Both the position numbers and the translations under genes were made by a program. A model generated the notes under the pieces. The model saw nothing but the letters and a program-made list of their open reading frames with translations. It ran no database searches and was not told where the DNA came from. Shown in pieces: positions 3-10,424 of a stretch of DNA of 32,000 bases. The stretch is from Caldivirga maquilingensis IC-167 (GTDB lineage: Archaea > Thermoproteota > Thermoprotei > Thermoproteales > Thermocladiaceae): assembly GCF_000018305.1 (NCBI RefSeq), contig NC_009954.1, positions 360,001 to 392,000 on the forward strand. Reading direction: 5' to 3'. Every line of letters begins with the position of its first letter. Positions within the stretch are counted from its first letter, which is position 1.

Positions 3-962
3 GACATTATAAATGATTTAATTGAATTAGGATTTAAACCATCAAAGATTAGGGAGTACCACGGCGAAAGCATTGTTACCTGGAGTAATGGATTAATGAA
101 TGTAATTAGCGGTAAGTCAAATGTTGCCTTCGTCACCTCAATAACGTTATTCACGCTACTTAAGGCATTGGGGATTCCCGTTGGTGATAAGGCACTGCAG
201 GCATATAGAGTGCCTGAGTGGGTAATGGAGGCTCCATTGGACGTTAAGGCGGAGTTTTTAGCCGCGTACTTCGGTAGTGAGTTAGAGAGACCGCGGGTTG
301 AGAATAACGGTAGAACATTCCAACCACCAACACTGGTAATACACAAGGCTGAGAACCTGGCTGGGAATGGTATTGAATTCCTAAACGATATTAGGAAACT
401 ACTTAGTGAATTCGGTATAGAGACAACACCCGTGAGCGTTAGCAGTGGCGTCATTAGGAAGAATGGCATTAGGACCGTTAGGTTGAGGTTTTCAATAATT
501 AGTAACACTAATAACTTACTAAGGTTCTTTGGAAGGATAGGCTATGCGTACAATAAGGAACATGACTCACTGGCGGTATTAGCGTATGAGTATCTACGTA
601 GAAAGGTTTTGCTTTGGCAGCATTACGCTGATGCTTATGAATTAACGAGGAAATTAATGAGCGAAGGCTACGACGGACCCAGTATAGTTAAGGCCCTTAG
701 GAGCGCCGGGTATAGGGTTAGTAGGGCCACGGTGTATAAGTGGTTAAAGGGTGTTAAGAATACTAAGTACATAGGTAGAACAGCCAGAATACCATCATTC
801 AGTGATTGGATTATTAAGGCCACACTAGGGCTGGGGAACTCGGGGCTGGTTTGGGATGTGGTCACTGAAGTTAAGCCCATTGAGTGGAATGATAGGCTTT
901 GGGATGTGACCACTGAAAGCTCATACCATAACTTCATTGCAAACGGCCTGGTAACCGGCAAC
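3..962 (+). other. Intein, LAGLIDADG homing-endonuclease type (C-terminal ~320 residues visible; N-terminal splicing block lies outside the window)
   Basis: LAGLIDADG-like helix [18 protein letters not shown] (246..293). Typical endonuclease segments [15 protein letters not shown] and [16 protein letters not shown]. Block F/G-like [22 protein letters not shown] ends in Asn (960..962) and is followed directly by Cys (963..965) of the extein. Confidence 0.85.
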
Positions 963-1193
963 TGTGTCAGGGTCCAGCTTACGAAGAATGGGAAGGTGGT
1001 TACGGCATTCGTGCCGTGGGATGGTGGTTTAAACCTCATTAATGAGCATGATGAGGTGATCATAGAGAGGATCGGTGGCCCAGAGGGTAGGGCTTACGGT
1101 GACCTACCTGGCGTGAGGTTTAAGGTAACTAAAGTTAATGGAGTCAGTCTTAAAGCCATACTACTGGGTAAGAAACAGAAACCAGTTAGATAA
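3..1193 (+). CDS. rps12: 30S ribosomal protein uS12 (S12/S23 family), 5'-truncated by the window edge and interrupted by an intein (intein 3..962, C-extein 963..1193)
   Basis: The frame of ORF 96..1193 stays open back to nt 3 ([19 protein letters not shown]...). The last 76 codons, [76 protein letters not shown], match the conserved C-terminal half of archaeal/eukaryotic uS12 (compare human S23 ...[29 protein letters not shown]...GDIPGVRFKVVKV..VSL). The upstream part is intein-like. Confidence 0.9.
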
Positions 1194-1888
1194 TTAGCCA
1201 TTAACTTAAGTTACATTATTAATTCACTTAATTTAATAATAATAAGTATAAATGCGGTTTGCAAATGCCTAATTTCCCAGCAGTTAATGGTAGTATCACC
1301 TACCCTACTAGTCATTCGTGATCCTATGTTGAACACTATGTATGAATCCTATGAATTGATGGATAACAAATTCATGAAACCCAATGATAACTTCGTTCAT
1401 GTGCCACAACAAACTCCTAGGATCAATGCAAGGATTAGGCGATCGTTGAGCGGGAACTACGTGGGTTTAGAAGAGGTAGCTTGATCCGCCTAGTTACTCC
1501 ATGGATAAGTTATTCATGGATTACTTGGCCGGCGCATCATAAGCCTCTACACTATTGCCGTTAAAGGTGAGGTGCCACAACATAAGGGCACTGTATGAGC
1601 CAGGGATAAAGAGTATGATCAGCCTCAACATTAGGAGGTAGATTTAAGAAAAATAGGTAAATTACGCCTTAACTTACCCTAGCACACTTAACCTAATATT
1701 ACCCAACGTAAAAATTCAACCTCACTGATACAGTACCATAAAGCCTAGCGAATCCAGTGGGTAAGATGTATGGTAGGAGATTAAGTGAGTTAATAAGGCT
1801 CAGAGTACTAGTTGATTAATAAATCAACTCAGTAAAAGGCTAGGTGGTGTAAAGGTTTCCGGAATAATTATCTAGCAAATAATTATAA

Positions 1889-3142
1889 ATGAGTGCAATA
1901 TGTGTATCTAGGGTTATGAATCCAATAGATGATTATATAAAGAACGAGGTCAAGGAGTTAATGGGGGAATCCGCATTCACATACCTGGCTAAGGCACGTG
2001 AGGTAAGTGAGAGGAAGGGCATTAGGGTAATCTCCTTCGGAATTGGGCAGCCGGACTTACCCACATTCCCCAACATAATAAATGCTGCTAAGAGGGCACT
2101 GGATGAGGGATTCACCGGCTACACCGAAACACCGGGCATTAAGGAGCTTAGGGAGGCTGTGGCTGATTACCTAAACCATAGGTACCAGGCAAAGGTGCTT
2201 CCCGAGGAGGTGATAGTGACGACTGGTACAAAGACAGCCATATTCCTAGCCCTGTCAGCCTATGTGAGGCCAGGCGATGAGGTGATAATACCGGATCCCT
2301 CATACCCAGCATATGCGGAGATAACGAAGTTCAACGGTGGGAAGCCCATTTATGTACCCCTAAAATTCAGCGTGGAGGATGGGTTTAGACTTGATGTTGA
2401 GGGTATTGAGGGGGCTTTGACTGATAAGACCAGGGCAGTGGTTATCAATAACCCGCATAACCCCACGGGTACTGTATTCGACGCTAGGGATGTGATGAAG
2501 GTTTTGGATATAGCGAAGGATCATAGGTTATTGGTAATTGTTGATGAGATATACGATAACTTCGTGTACGAGGATACCGTATTTAAGGGTATCCTCGAAC
2601 TTGAGCCCGAGTGGAGGAAGTACATAATCTATACCAATGGCTTTAGTAAGACGTTCTCCATGACCGGTTGGAGGCTCGGTTACCTAGTCACTAGTAGGGA
2701 TGTGGTTAAGTACCTGGAGAGGTTAGCTACAAACGTTTACAGCTGCCCACCATCCATAGCCCAGTGGGCGGGTGTGGAGGCCCTGAGGAGTGGGATGTCG
2801 TGGCGTGAAAGTAGGAGGATGGTTGAGTTATTCAGGAGGCGTAGGGATGTTATGTATGAGGAGTTAAGGAAAATACCCGGTATCGAGGTGTGGAGGGGTA
2901 ATGGGGCATTTTACATGTATCCCAGGGTAGCCCCACTGCTTAATAAGCTGAGTATGGACGTAGAATCCTTCACAAACTGGCTCCTTGAGGACCACGGCGT
3001 GGTGGTACTACCAGGTACTGCATTCTCTGAAACACGTATGGGTAGGGAGTTTGTGAGATTTAGTTATGCACTGGATGAGGGAGACATAAGGGAGGGTGTA
3101 AGGAGAATCCTCAATGCGGTAATGCAGAGGCTAGGTAAATAA
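1889..3142 (+). CDS. Class I/II PLP-dependent aminotransferase (aspartate aminotransferase-like)
   Basis: 417 aa. Motifs VINNPHNPTGTVF and NGFSKTFSMTGWRLGY (PLP-lysine motif). Alternative in-frame start at ATG 1916. Two palindromic ATAATTAT boxes lie at 1864..1871 and 1880..1887, just upstream. Confidence 0.9.
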   Translation: MSAICVSRVMNPIDDYIKNEVKELMGESAFTYLAKAREVSERKGIRVISFGIGQPDLPTFPNIINAAKRALDEGFTGYTETPGIKELREAVADYLNHRYQAKVLPEEVIVTTGTKTAIFLALSAYVRPGDEVIIPDPSYPAYAEITKFNGGKPIYVPLKFSVEDGFRLDVEGIEGALTDKTRAVVINNPHNPTGTVFDARDVMKVLDIAKDHRLLVIVDEIYDNFVYEDTVFKGILELEPEWRKYIIYTNGFSKTFSMTGWRLGYLVTSRDVVKYLERLATNVYSCPPSIAQWAGVEALRSGMSWRESRRMVELFRRRRDVMYEELRKIPGIEVWRGNGAFYMYPRVAPLLNKLSMDVESFTNWLLEDHGVVVLPGTAFSETRMGREFVRFSYALDEGDIREGVRRILNAVMQRLGK

Positions 3143-3168
3143 AGTGCTGCGTTGTGGAAATTAACAAT

Positions 3169-3517
3169 ATGGAGCATGTATACGTTGATGCGACAATATA
3201 CGGGGAGGGAACCAAGAACCGTAAAAGCCCTTGTGGATACGGGCGCCACGTACACGGTCATACCCAGGAAACTGGCTGAGGAACTCGGTATAAGGGGTTT
3301 GGGAACCTTCATTAATGTACTCGCGGCAAAGGGGTATGTAAGGCTTGAGGAGGCCTTGGTCACCATGGAAATAATGAATGAAAGGAGGAATCAAGTGGTG
3401 CTGTTATCGGACAATGCTGACATGGTAATTGTGGGGGTCATAACACTGGAATCCATGGGGTTTATCGCGGATCCAACCACAGGTAAGCTCGAGAGATCAG
3501 GGGTCTTCCTACTCTAG
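3169..3517 (+). CDS. Retropepsin-like (clan AA) aspartic protease, apparently needing a +1 frameshift near 3208..3212
   Basis: ALVDTGATYTVIPRKLAEELGI carries the D-T-G active-site motif. A family-typical N-terminus, MEHVYVDATIYGEG, is encoded from ATG 3169 in the neighbouring frame and runs into the ORF 3152..3517 frame at the G/A run cggggagggaacc. Confidence 0.7.
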
Positions 3518-3788
3518 CAGGGAAGGGCTTAAATACATGGTGGCTTTACACAGATTTGGTACGCCTAGCAATGGTTCACTAATAAAGGCTGTAAGGTTAG
3601 GAGCCAAATACCCAGGATACCATTAAAATTCAAGAAGAACCTAACCCCAAGACGCAGAAACAGCCGAAACTACTATACAAACTGGGCACTAACAGGCAGC
3701 ATAATAAGTCCCGAGGATGTTGGCTACGCAGGTGCAGTTGGGTGGTTGTGTTGGGGTCTTGGTTCGTGGTTTGCTGTTTTGTGGTTAG

Positions 3789-3796
3789 TTTTTTAA
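3789..3796 (+). promoter_or_regulatory. TATA-like box (ttttttaa) upstream of the coiled-coil gene
   Basis: An A/T octamer lies 22 nt upstream of in-frame GTG 3818. This fits the archaeal -26 TATA spacing with a leaderless mRNA. It implies the true start is probably GTG 3818 rather than GTG 3797. Confidence 0.35.
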
Positions 3797-4381
3797 GTGT
3801 TGGTTATTGCCTTGTGTGTGGAGTCTTTGTTGGGTGCCGTTATTGATAAGTCGCTTGAGGCTGTTTTGAGGAAGTTGGAGAAGGGTGAGAGGCTTAAGAC
3901 TGAGGATTTGGTGGTTTTGGTGTTATCTACGGTGAGGGAGCAAAACAGGAGGATAGATGCGCTTAATGATCAAGTTAATAGGAGGATTGATGAGGTGAGT
4001 AAGAGAATTGATATGCTCAATGACCAGGTTAATAGGAGGATTGAGGAGTTGAACAAGAGGATTGATGCGTTAGCGGATCAATTAAATAGGAGGATTGATG
4101 AGACCAACAAGAGAATTAATGAGACCAATAAGAGGATTGACTCATTGAGTGAGCAGGTTAATAAGAGAATTGATGAAACGAATAAGAGGATTGATGCCTT
4201 GAGTGATCAAATAGGTAGGAGGTTTGAGGAGTTGAATATGAGGATTGATGGTGTGTATAATGTGCTTGGTAATATTCAGAGGACCCTTGTTGATATGAGT
4301 AAGATTCTCATGGATCTTCAGAAAGTCATGCTTAGTATTCAGGCTTCTATATCGTCTCAATCGCAGAGGCAAACCCACTAA
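3797..4381 (+). CDS. Coiled-coil protein built from tandem 7- and 11-residue N(K/R)RID-type repeats; function unknown
   Basis: 194-aa ORF. Residues encoded by 3944..4255 read NRRIDAL/NDQVNRRIDEV/SKRIDML/NDQVNRRIEEL/NKRIDAL/ADQLNRRIDET/NKRINET/NKRIDSL/SEQVNKRIDET/NKRIDAL/SDQIGRRFEEL/NMRIDGV. There is no ATG start; a GTG start at 3797 or 3818 is likely. Confidence 0.65.
   Translation: MLVIALCVESLLGAVIDKSLEAVLRKLEKGERLKTEDLVVLVLSTVREQNRRIDALNDQVNRRIDEVSKRIDMLNDQVNRRIEELNKRIDALADQLNRRIDETNKRINETNKRIDSLSEQVNKRIDETNKRIDALSDQIGRRFEELNMRIDGVYNVLGNIQRTLVDMSKILMDLQKVMLSIQASISSQSQRQTH
3944..4255 (+). repeat. Intragenic tandem repeat: five 54-nt (18-codon = 7+11) units plus one extra 21-nt unit
   Basis: The DNA pattern gat-nnn-ytn-ant-gay-car-ntn-aat-agg-agg-att-gak-gag-nnn-aay-aag-agr-att recurs directly. 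Confidence 0.85.
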
Positions 4382-4384
4382 CGC

Positions 4385-4639
4385 CCAGGGAACCCATTAT
4401 ATCCCCAACCACGTGAGTACTAGGCTTCAGGAAAGCTAAAGCGAAGACCAACCTATCGAAACTCCTCCTCACGGGATCCTCTATAAGGCTCTGCCAATGG
4501 GGGATCACTGAACTCATTATAAGCCATATATCAGTAAACCCAACCTCCCCTCAATATACCTAGCCATGGAGGATATGCACTCCCCATAGGAACCCCTCCT
4601 GGAACCATGACCAACAATGATCACCGCAACATTACTCAT
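4385..4639 (-). pseudogene. cbiX: Small sirohydrochlorin cobaltochelatase (CbiX-S)-like pseudogene with at least two frameshifts
   Basis: Minus strand from ATG 4639: MSNVAVIIVGHGSRRGSYGECISSMARYIEGRLG...stop (GHGSR motif). It continues in a second frame as YMAYNEFSDPPLAE, then in a third as LIEDPVRRSFDRLVFALAFLKPSTHVVGDIMGSLG (compare the CbiX pattern ..rivvvPlFL..G.H...DIp). Confidence 0.5.
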
Positions 4640-5231
4640 TAACATATGATCAACATCCAATTAATAAGCATTACGAAACCAAAAACCACAACAACGAACC
4701 AGAAACACCCAAGGACCCACGCATGATCATTTAATGGTTCTGAAAAATTAGGGGATAATAATAGACATGCAAATTATCATTAAAATAACTAGACAGGATA
4801 AAGCCGTAGTCAGGAAGTACGTGGAAAATAATGACACCAATTAGTAATGAAACTCCGGAGTAAAATATACCACTGACAGTAAAATCTAGAGGAAACATCC
4901 ATGCTACCCAATGCATGTCTATGCTAAGTAAGCTGGAATTTAAGATGGATGACCACATACAGCGCAATCATCACCATTGAGTACAATGCACCTAGGGCCT
5001 CAGTATATTTACCCCCTGTATTTAGTTCCTCCTCGCATTGAACTTATACTCTATTCCCCTTACCGTTTCTAGGATCCATTGCTTTTGAAACTCTTCGAAA
5101 GTCACGCACCCCGTGTCCCTGCATCCCATAACATTGGAATCCATGGAGATTCATCACAGACCCAGTGGTAGTGGCCGTGAGGCTTGCCAAGGGTGGGTTC
5201 AGGACCCCGGATACCTTAATTAATTTAACCC

Positions 5232-5290
5232 ACTAAGGTTAATGAAGTTAACCTTAAAGCCATACTACTGGGTGAGAAGCAGAAACTATG
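5232..5290 (+). pseudogene. Decayed duplicate of the rps12 3' end (core of a probable rps12 relic)
   Basis: 5232..5286 aligns without gaps to 1128..1182 with 48/55 identities and a perfect 21-mer cttaaagccatactactgggt (1149..1169 = 5253..5273). It encodes TKVNEVNLKAILLGEKQK versus [18 protein letters not shown]. Stops occur in frame immediately upstream, and the stop codon is lost downstream. Confidence 0.75.
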
Positions 5291-8589: not shown

Positions 8590-10218
8590 ATGACTGCCTT
8601 CATATTCATTACAGGCGGTGTAATGAGCAGTGTGGGTAAGGGCATAGCCACAGCATCCATAGCTAAGATCCTCCAGGCTAGGGGGCTTTCAGTAACGGCG
8701 ATTAAGGTGGATCCGTACTTAAACGTTGATGCTGGTACAATGAATCCTTACCAACATGGTGAAGTCTACGTCACCGCTGATGGTGGTGAAACGGACCTGG
8801 ACCTGGGTCATTATGAGAGGTTTCTCGACGTTGAATTATCCAAGAGCCACAACATAACCTCTGGTCAAGTTTACTTAAGTGTGATTGATGGTGAACGAAG
8901 GGGAGTTTACCTTGGGCAAACGGTTCAATTAATACCGCATGTGACGAATGAGATTAAGGCTAGGATTAGGGCTATTGCCAAGGAGGGTTGGGATGCCGTG
9001 GTTATTGAGATTGGGGGAACTGTTGGTGATTACGAGAGTCTACCATTCCTTGAAGCCGCCAGGCAGATGAGGCTTGAGGAGAATGGTAACGTGGTGTTTG
9101 TTCACGTAGCCCCAGTGCCAATCCTAGACGTAACTGATGAATTCAAAACTAAGCCACTGCAGCACAGTGTCATGGAGCTTAGGAGGGTTGGTATTCAACC
9201 TGACATAATAATAATAAGGTCCACTAGACCAATAACCAATGATGTTAAGGCCAAGGTATCCTTATTCACCAATGTGCCTCAAAACCTAATATTCAACTCC
9301 TTTAACGTCGACACAATATACAGGGTACCGTTAATCCTTGATGAACAGGGATTAGGCAGAATGCTTACTGAGTTACTTAAGGTTAAGGTGAATGAACCCA
9401 AGTGGGATGATTGGGTTAACCTAGTGAACTCAATGGTTAACGCCACTGATGAGGTTAAGGTAACACTCTGCGGTAAGTACGTTAAACTAAGGGACGCCTA
9501 CATAAGTATTGTGGAGGCTATTAGGCATGCGGCCGCTTGGCTGAGGGTTAAGCCTAGGATTATTTGGTGTGATTCAGAGGAGGTGGAGAAGGATCCCGAC
9601 TTACTACCTAAAATGAATACTGACGCCTACATAATACTACCCGGCTTCGGAGCAAGGGGTGTTGAGGGTAAGATAATGGCCATTAGGTATGCTAGGGAGA
9701 ATAACATACCCCTACTGGGCATATGCTACGGCATGCAGCTCTCAGTGGTTGAGTACGCTAGGGATGTTCTAGGCCTTAAGGACGCCCACACCACCGAGGT
9801 TAACCCAAACACCACCCACCCAGTGATAGACATAACCCCAGAGGAGAAGAGCATTAACAAACTAGGGGGCACTATGATACTTGGTGATAGGGAAATAAGT
9901 ATTACCGAGGGGAGTATTCTTCATGGAATCTATGGTTCATTAAGGATTAGGGAAAGGCATAGACATAGGTATGAGGTTAACCCAGCCTACTTTAAGCAGC
10001 TTCAGGAGGCAGGCTTAGTCTTCTCAGCCATGAGGATTGATGTACCTAGAGTGGAGGCTATTGAACTACATAACCACTACTTCTTCATAGCAACCCAATT
10101 CCACCCCGAATTCAGAAGCAGGTTAACTAGACCACACCCATTATTCACCGCCCTACTAAAAGCCGCATTAGCAAGGAAAATGGGCCTTGAATCACCATAC
10201 ACCGGTGTTAAACCATAA
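8590..10218 (+). CDS. pyrG: CTP synthase
   Basis: 542 aa. N-terminal FITGGVMSSVGKGI, glutamine amidotransferase GICYGMQ, and ATQFHPEF. Confidence 0.95.
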   Translation: MTAFIFITGGVMSSVGKGIATASIAKILQARGLSVTAIKVDPYLNVDAGTMNPYQHGEVYVTADGGETDLDLGHYERFLDVELSKSHNITSGQVYLSVIDGERRGVYLGQTVQLIPHVTNEIKARIRAIAKEGWDAVVIEIGGTVGDYESLPFLEAARQMRLEENGNVVFVHVAPVPILDVTDEFKTKPLQHSVMELRRVGIQPDIIIIRSTRPITNDVKAKVSLFTNVPQNLIFNSFNVDTIYRVPLILDEQGLGRMLTELLKVKVNEPKWDDWVNLVNSMVNATDEVKVTLCGKYVKLRDAYISIVEAIRHAAAWLRVKPRIIWCDSEEVEKDPDLLPKMNTDAYIILPGFGARGVEGKIMAIRYARENNIPLLGICYGMQLSVVEYARDVLGLKDAHTTEVNPNTTHPVIDITPEEKSINKLGGTMILGDREISITEGSILHGIYGSLRIRERHRHRYEVNPAYFKQLQEAGLVFSAMRIDVPRVEAIELHNHYFFIATQFHPEFRSRLTRPHPLFTALLKAALARKMGLESPYTGVKP

Positions 10219-10264
10219 CCAAAACACATCCTAATTCCTTTACTTTCAATCCCTTATTCTTTCT

Positions 10265-10424
10265 CTTTCTAATCCCTTTTGGGATTTACATGCAAATTCC
10301 GAATCAGAAGCAAACATTAAAGAAAATACTAATCTTTCTAATCCCTTTTGGGATTTACAAGCTCAGGAAACCAGCCACGATTCAAGAACTCATTTTACTC
10401 TTTCTAATCCCTTTTGGGATTTAC
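10265..10424 (-). CRISPR. Mini CRISPR array: 3 identical 25-nt repeats and 2 spacers (44 and 41 nt); crRNA sense inferred on the minus strand
   Basis: Repeats ctttctaatcccttttgggatttac at 10265..10289, 10334..10358 and 10400..10424. The reverse complement, GTAAATCCCAAAAGGGATTAGAAAG, closely resembles the Sulfolobus repeat GATTAATCCCAAAAGGAATTGAAAG, including the ...GAAAG 3' end. A degenerate partial repeat lies at 10243..10264. Confidence 0.8.

Follow-up and report, generated by a model that had tools for sequence, protein, structure and literature searches.

A probable class-1 intein with a LAGLIDADG endonuclease domain beside the decoding loop of ribosomal protein uS12 in Caldivirga maquilingensis

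What is the long in-frame insert that splits rps12, the gene for ribosomal protein uS12, in the archaeon Caldivirga maquilingensis, and can a gene so interrupted still yield a normal uS12? We examined this question in a 32,000-nt stretch of C. maquilingensis DNA (hereafter the window), the left edge of which cuts into rps12. We are confident that the insert is a canonical class-1 intein with a two-motif LAGLIDADG homing endonuclease, located between Lys71 and Cys72 of uS12 and five residues past the PN(A/S)A motif of the decoding loop. Its architecture and junctions, the conservation of its residues, the predicted fold, the empty site, the selection acting on it and its distribution come from sequence and structure analyses; the splicing steps and the roles of individual residues are established intein chemistry (PMC4031507), which we infer to operate here as well.

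The interrupted gene, its junctions and the empty site

The frame at 3..1193 (+) is open from the left window edge to a TAA at 1191..1193 and encodes 396 residues (in-frame translation of 3..1196). The 76 residues from 963..1190 correspond to positions 70-146 of the 146-position archaeal/eukaryotic uS12 profile (NF003254, E = 1.9e-36; TIGR00982, E = 8.1e-34; PF00164, E = 2e-23), and the 320 residues from 3..962 match the intein-containing RtcB family NF038162 (E = 3.3e-56) and the RFC small-subunit intein, with TIGR01443 (intein_Cterm) at 20.3 bits against a cut-off of 15.6; as profile scores go, the uS12 and intein E-values lie far beyond chance. An Asn codon at 960..962 directly precedes the Cys codon at 963..965. 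A sequence-only reading of the window had proposed this single frame, with the C-terminal half of uS12 from 963 onwards, an intein carrying endonuclease and Hint block F/G features before it and the Asn-Cys boundary at these codons, and translation, profile matches and motif positions bear it out in each respect.

The remainder of the gene lies to the left of the window and was taken from an independent assembly of the same organism (L001), which is identical to the window over 10,464 shared bases, and from the full 661-aa protein (P0001), which in a protein search is 100% identical to the window-encoded part over the whole query. Window position 1 is L001 position 10794, and rps12 spans L001 10001-11986. 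The same reading had anticipated an N-terminal half of uS12 farther upstream, and both L001 and P0001 carry an in-frame uS12 N-extein ending in ...KPNAAVRK, followed by Cys1. The parts of the gene are as follows (pLDDT, predicted local distance difference test score; dN/dS, ratio of nonsynonymous to synonymous substitution rates).

L001 10001-10793, left of the window: 71-residue N-extein and first 194 intein residues
P0001 1-71, upstream of the window: N-extein, 71 residues, ending in ...EARKPNAAVRK
P0001 72-585: intein, 514 aa, CVTPDTLINL...LVTGN
P0001 586-661: C-extein, 76 residues, CVRVQL...KQKPVR
Just upstream of the window: LAGLIDADG motif 1, IARLVGHLFGDGSL, LVGHLFGDGSL, with Asp239
3..962 (+): C-terminal portion of the intein (P0001 266-585, intein residues 195-514), 100% identical between the window, P0001 and L001
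3..554 (+): part of the LAGLIDADG endonuclease domain (P0001 266-449), from fold matches, pLDDT mostly above 90 and a dN/dS of 0.10 against Vulcanisaeta souniana
246..293 (+): LAGLIDADG motif 2 with the presumed catalytic Glu358, from conservation in the alignment
555..827 (+): helical region, residues 450-538 of the model, lying after the endonuclease core and before the C-terminal Hint half
672..755 (+): helix-turn-helix-like stretch inside the helical region, from a weak HTH_Tnp_IS630 match (E = 0.12)
828..962 (+): C-terminal Hint half, ending in Gly584-Asn585, from invariant residues and TIGR01443
891..947 (+): block F, 19 residues
948..962 (+): block G, LVTGN
963..1193 (+): uS12 C-extein, starting at the +1 Cys nucleophile, with the TAA at 1191..1193

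The insertion is precise at the protein level. Aligned to the intein-free uS12 of Pyrobaculum calidifontis (9e71 chain BN, 147 aa), the exteins cover residues 1-73 and 72-147 of the chain and abut at Lys71/Cys72 with nothing missing, which agrees with the proposed placement of the insert between the Lys and the Cys of the conserved loop. Joined, the exteins form a 147-aa uS12 that exceeds the cut-offs of two uS12 equivalog models, TIGR00982 and NF003254, with 250.2 bits against 196 and 235.8 bits against 140.2. The spliced sequence covers positions 2-146 of 146 as a single stretch; the unspliced precursor also passes the cut-offs, but in two stretches.

A natural empty site is found in a contig of a close relative from another sample (L082), where the same NusA-like gene precedes that for an intein-free 147-residue uS12 (P0077) with 93% amino acid identity. 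The DNA of the two loci aligns collinearly at 81-82% identity save for one gap: L001 10214..11755 has no counterpart in L082, a difference of exactly 1,542 bp (514 codons). With ↓ marking each junction, the occupied site reads GTGAGGAAG↓TGCGTAACC...GGCAAC↓TGTGTCAGG and the empty site in L082 reads GTTAGGAAG↓TGCGTCCGC; the intein-less junction is GCAGCAGTGAGGAAG↓TGTGTCAGGGTCCAG, the joined C. maquilingensis exteins give ...GCAGCAGTGAGGAAG↓TGTGTCAGGGTCCAGCTT..., and the natural empty-site junction in L082 is ...GCAGCCGTTAGGAAG↓TGCGTCCGCGTGCAGTTA.... The first two codons, for Cys-Val, are TGCGTA in the intein (L001 10214-10219), TGTGTC in the C-extein (L001 11756-11761, window 963-968) and TGCGTC at the empty site of L082. 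Because intein and C-extein both start with Cys-Val, the insertion boundary is ambiguous by a few bases in the DNA; the N-extein alignments overrun two residues into the intein.

A search with the spliced sequence against a collection of 5.8 billion proteins, which includes NCBI P0001, returned thousands of intein-free uS12 proteins, the best being P0077 (93%), followed by those of Thermocladium (88%) and a Vulcanisaeta sp. (86%), and no intein-free C. maquilingensis uS12 was among the matches. The interrupted gene itself stands in the usual L7Ae-NusA-rps12 position: an L7Ae (L30e) gene, a NusA KH-domain gene or both lie directly upstream of rps12 in L001, in V. souniana (L083) and in L082, and V. 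souniana also has rpoB, rpoA' and rpoA'' upstream.

Downstream of rps12, the neighbors are wholly different among the three loci. In C. maquilingensis a 695-bp gene-free gap (1194-1888) is followed by an aminotransferase gene, in V. souniana (L083 8987-9554) a small open reading frame (ORF) is followed by an M20 peptidase gene, and in the intein-free relative (L082 1017-1610) L13e is followed by an MFS gene. Unlike in the classical archaeal cluster, no rps7 follows rps12.

NCBI names P0001 "intein-containing 30S ribosomal protein S12", and the uS12 intein is thus already known at the level of database annotation, as a textbook class-1 intein with a LAGLIDADG endonuclease. The sequence-only reading knew of no characterized intein in S12; this one is on record in annotation, and full-text searches found no paper describing or testing a uS12 intein. 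In the main-text passages searched of the main intein-host census (PMC4760082), supplementary tables aside, uS12 is absent; passages of the same census report that inteins cluster in replication and repair proteins and that the core translation machinery holds few, which makes uS12, an essential ribosomal protein invaded next to its decoding loop, an uncommon host.

Splicing, endonuclease activity and rival explanations

Conservation was counted in an alignment of 39 full-length homologues, 37-84% identical to P0001, with block definitions, nucleophiles and assisting residues as described for class-1 inteins (PMC4031507). Intein residue 1 (Cys72 of P0001, directly after ...AAVRK, its codon lying left of the window), His149 of block B, Asp566, Thr568, His574 and Asn575 of block F, the terminal Asn585 and the +1 Cys586 are each present in 39/39. 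Block B, defined as Thr-x-x-His with the step-1 assisting His at B:10, reads A-S-G-D-H-P, its first position being Ser in 27 homologues and Thr in 12. Block F is defined by an Asp at F:4 and a His at F:13, and His574, within an HNF motif, would correspond to F:13. Pfam Intein_splicing (PF14890) scores 42.3 bits against a cut-off of 35.8 when run on the full protein. The protein thus combines Cys1, the block B His, the block F Asp and His, a C-terminal Asn with a +1 Cys, a seamless in-frame insertion and a predicted Hint fold; of the class-1 hallmarks, the penultimate His is lacking.

From these residues a conventional splicing pathway can be laid out. Once the 661-residue precursor has folded, Cys72, as intein residue 1, would undergo an N-S acyl shift assisted by His149 of block B, and attack by the +1 residue Cys586 would give a branched thioester. 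Asn585 would then cyclize with the help of Asp566 and His574 of block F, in place of the penultimate His, freeing the 514-residue intein, and an S-N shift would leave a 147-residue uS12 with a normal backbone. An unspliced precursor would presumably be unable to function in the ribosome. The freed intein is probably a site-specific endonuclease that would cleave intein-less rps12 alleles at AAG↓TGYGT; its homing would account for the patchy distribution across phyla described below. The protein presumably splices, and its homing endonuclease is presumably active.

The predicted structure agrees with this architecture. Modelled with AlphaFold from the 39-sequence alignment, the intein is predicted confidently (pLDDT mostly 85-98) and the exteins poorly, as is to be expected of a split ribosomal protein outside the ribosome. 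Searched with the intein alone, the Protein Data Bank (PDB) gives marginal matches by sequence (7qsu, E = 0.0014; 4o1r, E = 0.077), and fold comparison was therefore needed. The top PDB fold matches are endonuclease-bearing inteins (Tli/Pho VMA, PI-TkoII, PI-PfuI and PI-SceI; Foldseek E = 7e-18 to 3e-9); next come uS12 chains, matching the exteins, and then the mini-inteins Ssp DnaB and Npu DnaB together with the free-standing LAGLIDADG enzymes I-AniI, I-SceI and I-WcaI, and the bI3 maturase is also matched. PI-PfuI (1dq3), PI-TkoII (2cw7), the Tli/Pho VMA inteins (7qss, 7qst) and PI-SceI (1lws) share the overall architecture of the model, a split Hint domain with a two-motif LAGLIDADG endonuclease (fold-match probability 1.00). 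They differ from it in sequence, at 9-17% identity, and their global TM-scores are 0.2-0.4, as low as this because domain orientations and accessory regions differ. These solved endonuclease-containing inteins end in His-Asn.

The endonuclease motifs are also largely kept among the homologues: Asp239 of motif 1 in 36/39, and in motif 2 Gly356 in 39/39 and Ser357 and Glu358 in 37/39 each. The helical region next to the core is presumed to be an extra DNA-recognition module. In a codon comparison with the V. souniana allele, which has the same length and 80% amino acid identity, rough dN/dS values are 0.08 for the N-terminal Hint half, 0.10 for the endonuclease domain, 0.04 for the helical region and about 0.03 for the exteins, with a range of 0.04-0.11 over all intein domains. 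On these values, no domain of the C. maquilingensis intein looks to be decaying.

Several observations weigh against this interpretation. In the literature searched, no experimental evidence of splicing or endonuclease activity was found for any uS12 intein; the case for a single rps12 copy comes from protein-database matches, not from six-frame translation of the complete genome; LAGLIDADG_3 (PF14528) scores below its gathering threshold (18.3-19 vs 22.5 bits); and the dN/dS values are rough because synonymous sites are near saturation. The penultimate His (G:6), one of the residues that usually assist, is missing as well. The sequence-only reading had correctly noted Gly in its place and singled it out as unusual. 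It is not peculiar to this protein: C. maquilingensis has Gly584, the 39 homologues have Gly (24), Ser (11), Lys (2), Arg (1) or Leu (1) and never His, and a penultimate His is rare across the wider intein clade. About 5% of functional inteins lack the penultimate His, and restoring it improves some and harms others (PMC4031507). Its absence is therefore a known minority state of an assisting rather than defining residue, and not evidence against splicing.

The alternative that survives best concedes splicing and denies mobility: the endonuclease would be inactive and the element fixed, immobile and vertically inherited in Caldivirga and Vulcanisaeta. We regard this as possible, though distinctly the less likely account. 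Caldivirga and V. souniana share the insertion site and the intein length (514 aa) at saturated synonymous divergence, which points to long residence, and the sub-threshold LAGLIDADG_3 score leans the same way. That decay occurs in the lineage is suggested by a Caldivirga sp. metagenome-assembled genome (MAG; RSNS23), which carries a shorter, 449-aa allele of the same uS12 intein (P0007; L002 3001-4347) with a degenerate motif 1 (GRLLSSGSL, the Asp lost), the helical/helix-turn-helix region deleted and all splicing residues intact; it looks like an endonuclease in decay, a stage expected in the homing cycle. The C. maquilingensis allele does not share this state, since it retains both catalytic acidic residues, as do 36-37 of the 39 homologues, and dN/dS in its endonuclease domain and helical region is no higher than in the splicing domain. 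Intein-free alleles in close relatives, moreover, mean that targets for homing exist.

A second alternative, which we consider improbable, makes splicing conditional, a post-translational switch operated by a Cys1/Cys+1 disulfide or by temperature and gating uS12 supply and 30S assembly under stress. Both nucleophiles are Cys and invariant, the site adjoins the decoding loop of an essential protein, where an unspliced precursor should be non-functional, and other archaeal inteins have been suggested to splice conditionally, as discussed in passages of PMC4760082 and PMC4031507. By sequence, however, regulated and constitutive inteins cannot be told apart here, close relatives get by with an intein-free uS12, so that no regulatory function is required, and the patchy distribution fits a selfish element. 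Marginally more doubtful still is the fullest form of the idea, in which the intein is more than a passenger and redox- or temperature-gated splicing, dependent on the invariant Cys1 and Cys+1 and on a block G without His, throttles decoding-competent uS12 and 30S assembly under stress in these thermoacidophiles.

Distribution and intein relatives

The uS12-plus-intein architecture occurs in at least 57 clusters at 90% identity, and in a library clustered at 50% identity it is represented by eight full-length sequences as well as fragments. A profile census of genome contigs, in which 80 loci were kept of at least 600 stretches, is a sample rather than a count, and C. maquilingensis is not among its loci. 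Hosts include Caldivirga, V. souniana, Hadarchaeaceae, Thaumarchaeota/Nitrososphaeria (Nitrososphaerales), Woesearchaeota, Iainarchaeum, Nanoarchaeota and a Methanosarcinales MAG, so that the allele is scattered over Thermoproteales, Nitrososphaeria, DPANN, Hadarchaeota and Methanosarcinales; the site is empty in V. distributa, Thermocladium, Pyrobaculum and most other archaea. This patchiness, combined with a nearly invariant target sequence, is the pattern that a homing element would produce.

The locus illustrates that a homing element can pass between archaeal phyla where its target DNA is strongly conserved. It matters for annotation too: rps12 serves as a phylogenetic marker, and marker extraction can fail on a 1.5-kb insert. 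It also offers a thermostable intein that ends without a penultimate His, and perhaps a novel rare-cutting endonuclease. As an element it is standard, and its presence in uS12 changes no concept.

We further find members of the same intein clade, recognizable by the ending ...HNFxANGF(L/V)(T/V)(G/S)N↓C, at other Cys+1 sites and with 28-38% identity to the uS12 intein: in RtcB (DIN↓CGVRL, many bacterial MAGs included), in RNA polymerase A' (↓CPPYNADFDGD), in RNA polymerase B (PQ↓CGLVKNL) and in a few further hosts including radical-SAM-like and thioredoxin-like proteins (loci L012, L014, L016-L019 and L021-L081). This spread suggests repeated ectopic moves of the clade between hosts.

The closest relatives outside uS12 are the RtcB inteins (NF038162), to which the intein of Pyrococcus horikoshii PH1602/RtcB presumably belongs. 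P0001 72-588 matches them at E = 2.5e-90 and with 32-34% identity to P0073 and P0074, and its score lies far below the NF038162 cut-off (303.8 vs 1150 bits) because the model includes the RtcB exteins. The two kinds of intein have the same length class, the same layout of LAGLIDADG domain and helical region, Cys1 and Cys+1, and an ...HNFxANGFxxxN↓C ending that lacks the penultimate His (in RtcB mostly VVSN↓C). They differ in host and site (GYDIN↓CGVRL in RtcB) and in range: bacteria commonly carry RtcB inteins, and every uS12 allele found is archaeal.

The inteins of archaeal RNA polymerase A' and B (NADFDGD and GLVKNL sites; including P0075) fall into the same clade by the uS12-intein profile, with 33-38% identity, an ANGFLTGN↓C or ANGFLTKN↓C ending, Cys1 and Cys+1. 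Like the uS12 intein, they interrupt a core information-processing protein at a motif that is catalytic or highly conserved, and they differ from it in hosts and sites. The Methanocaldococcus jannaschii RpolA' intein reportedly splices with a penultimate Gly (Chen, Benner and Perler 2000, cited in PMC4031507).

The uS12 decoding loop has been invaded at least twice, as P0064 (L085 3001-4371) carries an intein at another uS12 site, AKQPN↓CFDNITE..., inside the PNSA motif; this second intein is unrelated to the first and about 310 residues long. It resembles the C. maquilingensis intein in host protein, decoding loop, reading frame and Cys1, has a weak Intein_splicing match below the cut-off (E = 8.3e-5) and shows LAGLIDADG-like motifs by eye. 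It differs in its site, five residues upstream, its +1 Ser and its canonical His-Asn ending, and a comparison of its intein part with the C. maquilingensis uS12 intein gave no significant similarity. The L085 contig also carries a free-standing LAGLIDADG_3 ORF and many small unknown genes.

One further protein, P0058 (617 aa, on a 2.4-kb JGI contig), fuses in frame an N-terminal part resembling glutamine amidotransferase/asparagine synthase to the last ~80 residues of a uS12-type intein and the uS12 C-extein; it is probably a chimera of assembly or gene calling, or else a rearranged locus.

A second rps12-like sequence and other features of the window

The window holds one other rps12-like sequence, 4 kb downstream of the intact gene.

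5204..5286 (+): rps12 relic, 83 bp, non-coding, with stop codons around it

The sequence-only reading had described this second copy as a wreck. The fragment is real (at 5232..5285, 83% amino acid and 87% nucleotide identity); it is, however, not the decayed intein-free copy so implied, as 26 nt of intein 5' sequence at 5204..5229 had been overlooked. These 26 nt begin 6 nt inside the intein, represent its codons 3-11 and are identical to the resident gene at 24/26 positions; two bases later, 5232..5286 corresponds to rps12 codons 127-144 (48/55 nt) in a different frame. The relic is a deletion derivative of an intein-bearing rps12 copy, implying an internal deletion of ~1.67 kb. It cannot supply uS12, and it is reasonable on that ground to infer, as the sequence-only reading did, that the intein must splice.

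An origin in a foreign species was rejected: the resident gene is the best match to the relic (24/26 and 48/55 nt), ahead of V. souniana (23/26 and 38/55), the Caldivirga sp. on L002 (19/26 and 44/55) and L082 (41/55). No counterpart of the relic was found downstream of V. souniana rps12. An att-type duplication was rejected on the grounds that the relic holds intein 5' sequence together with the 3' end of the gene and that 1194..5203 contains no integrase. An MFS gene follows the relic and L082 has the order rps12-L13e-MFS, but an ancestral rps12-MFS junction was likewise discarded, the downstream regions sharing neither nucleotide nor translated similarity. A possible further piece at 4800..4822 (18/23 nt to the N-extein/intein junction codons, E = 0.72) is attributed to chance, being flanked by stops and without extended similarity.

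The relic does indicate that rps12 has been duplicated at least once, and so bears on a last explanation, that the interrupted gene is a pseudogene with uS12 supplied by another copy, or that the insert is a permanent, non-splicing domain tolerated in the ribosome; we hold this to be very improbable, given a frame intact over 661 codons in C. maquilingensis and in dozens of genomes, invariant splice nucleophiles, an extein dN/dS of about 0.03, the normal gene position, no intein-free C. maquilingensis uS12 among the protein-collection matches, a relic that is 83 bp long, frame-broken and non-coding, and the difficulty of squaring a 514-residue insert beside the decoding loop with a working ribosome.

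Elsewhere in the window, a mini-array of three repeats (CTTTCTAATCCCTTTTGGGATTTAC) with start-to-start spacings of 69 and 66 nt lies at 10260-10424, directly after the ORF at 8590-10218 (CTP synthase in the L001 gene calls). It matches Rfam CRISPR-DR17 just above the gathering score, and no cas gene was seen among the large ORFs scanned near it. These three CRISPR repeats (10265..10424) are the sole Rfam matches at the gathering threshold in the window, which contains no tRNA genes. The ORF at 3797-4381 encodes a 194-residue protein with no Pfam family on record that consists almost entirely of a repeated coiled-coil-like unit (NRRID.LNDQV / NKRID.L.DQ.), and it adjoins a gene for a small retropepsin-like aspartic protease at 3152-3517 (Asp_protease_2 in the precomputed L001 matches).

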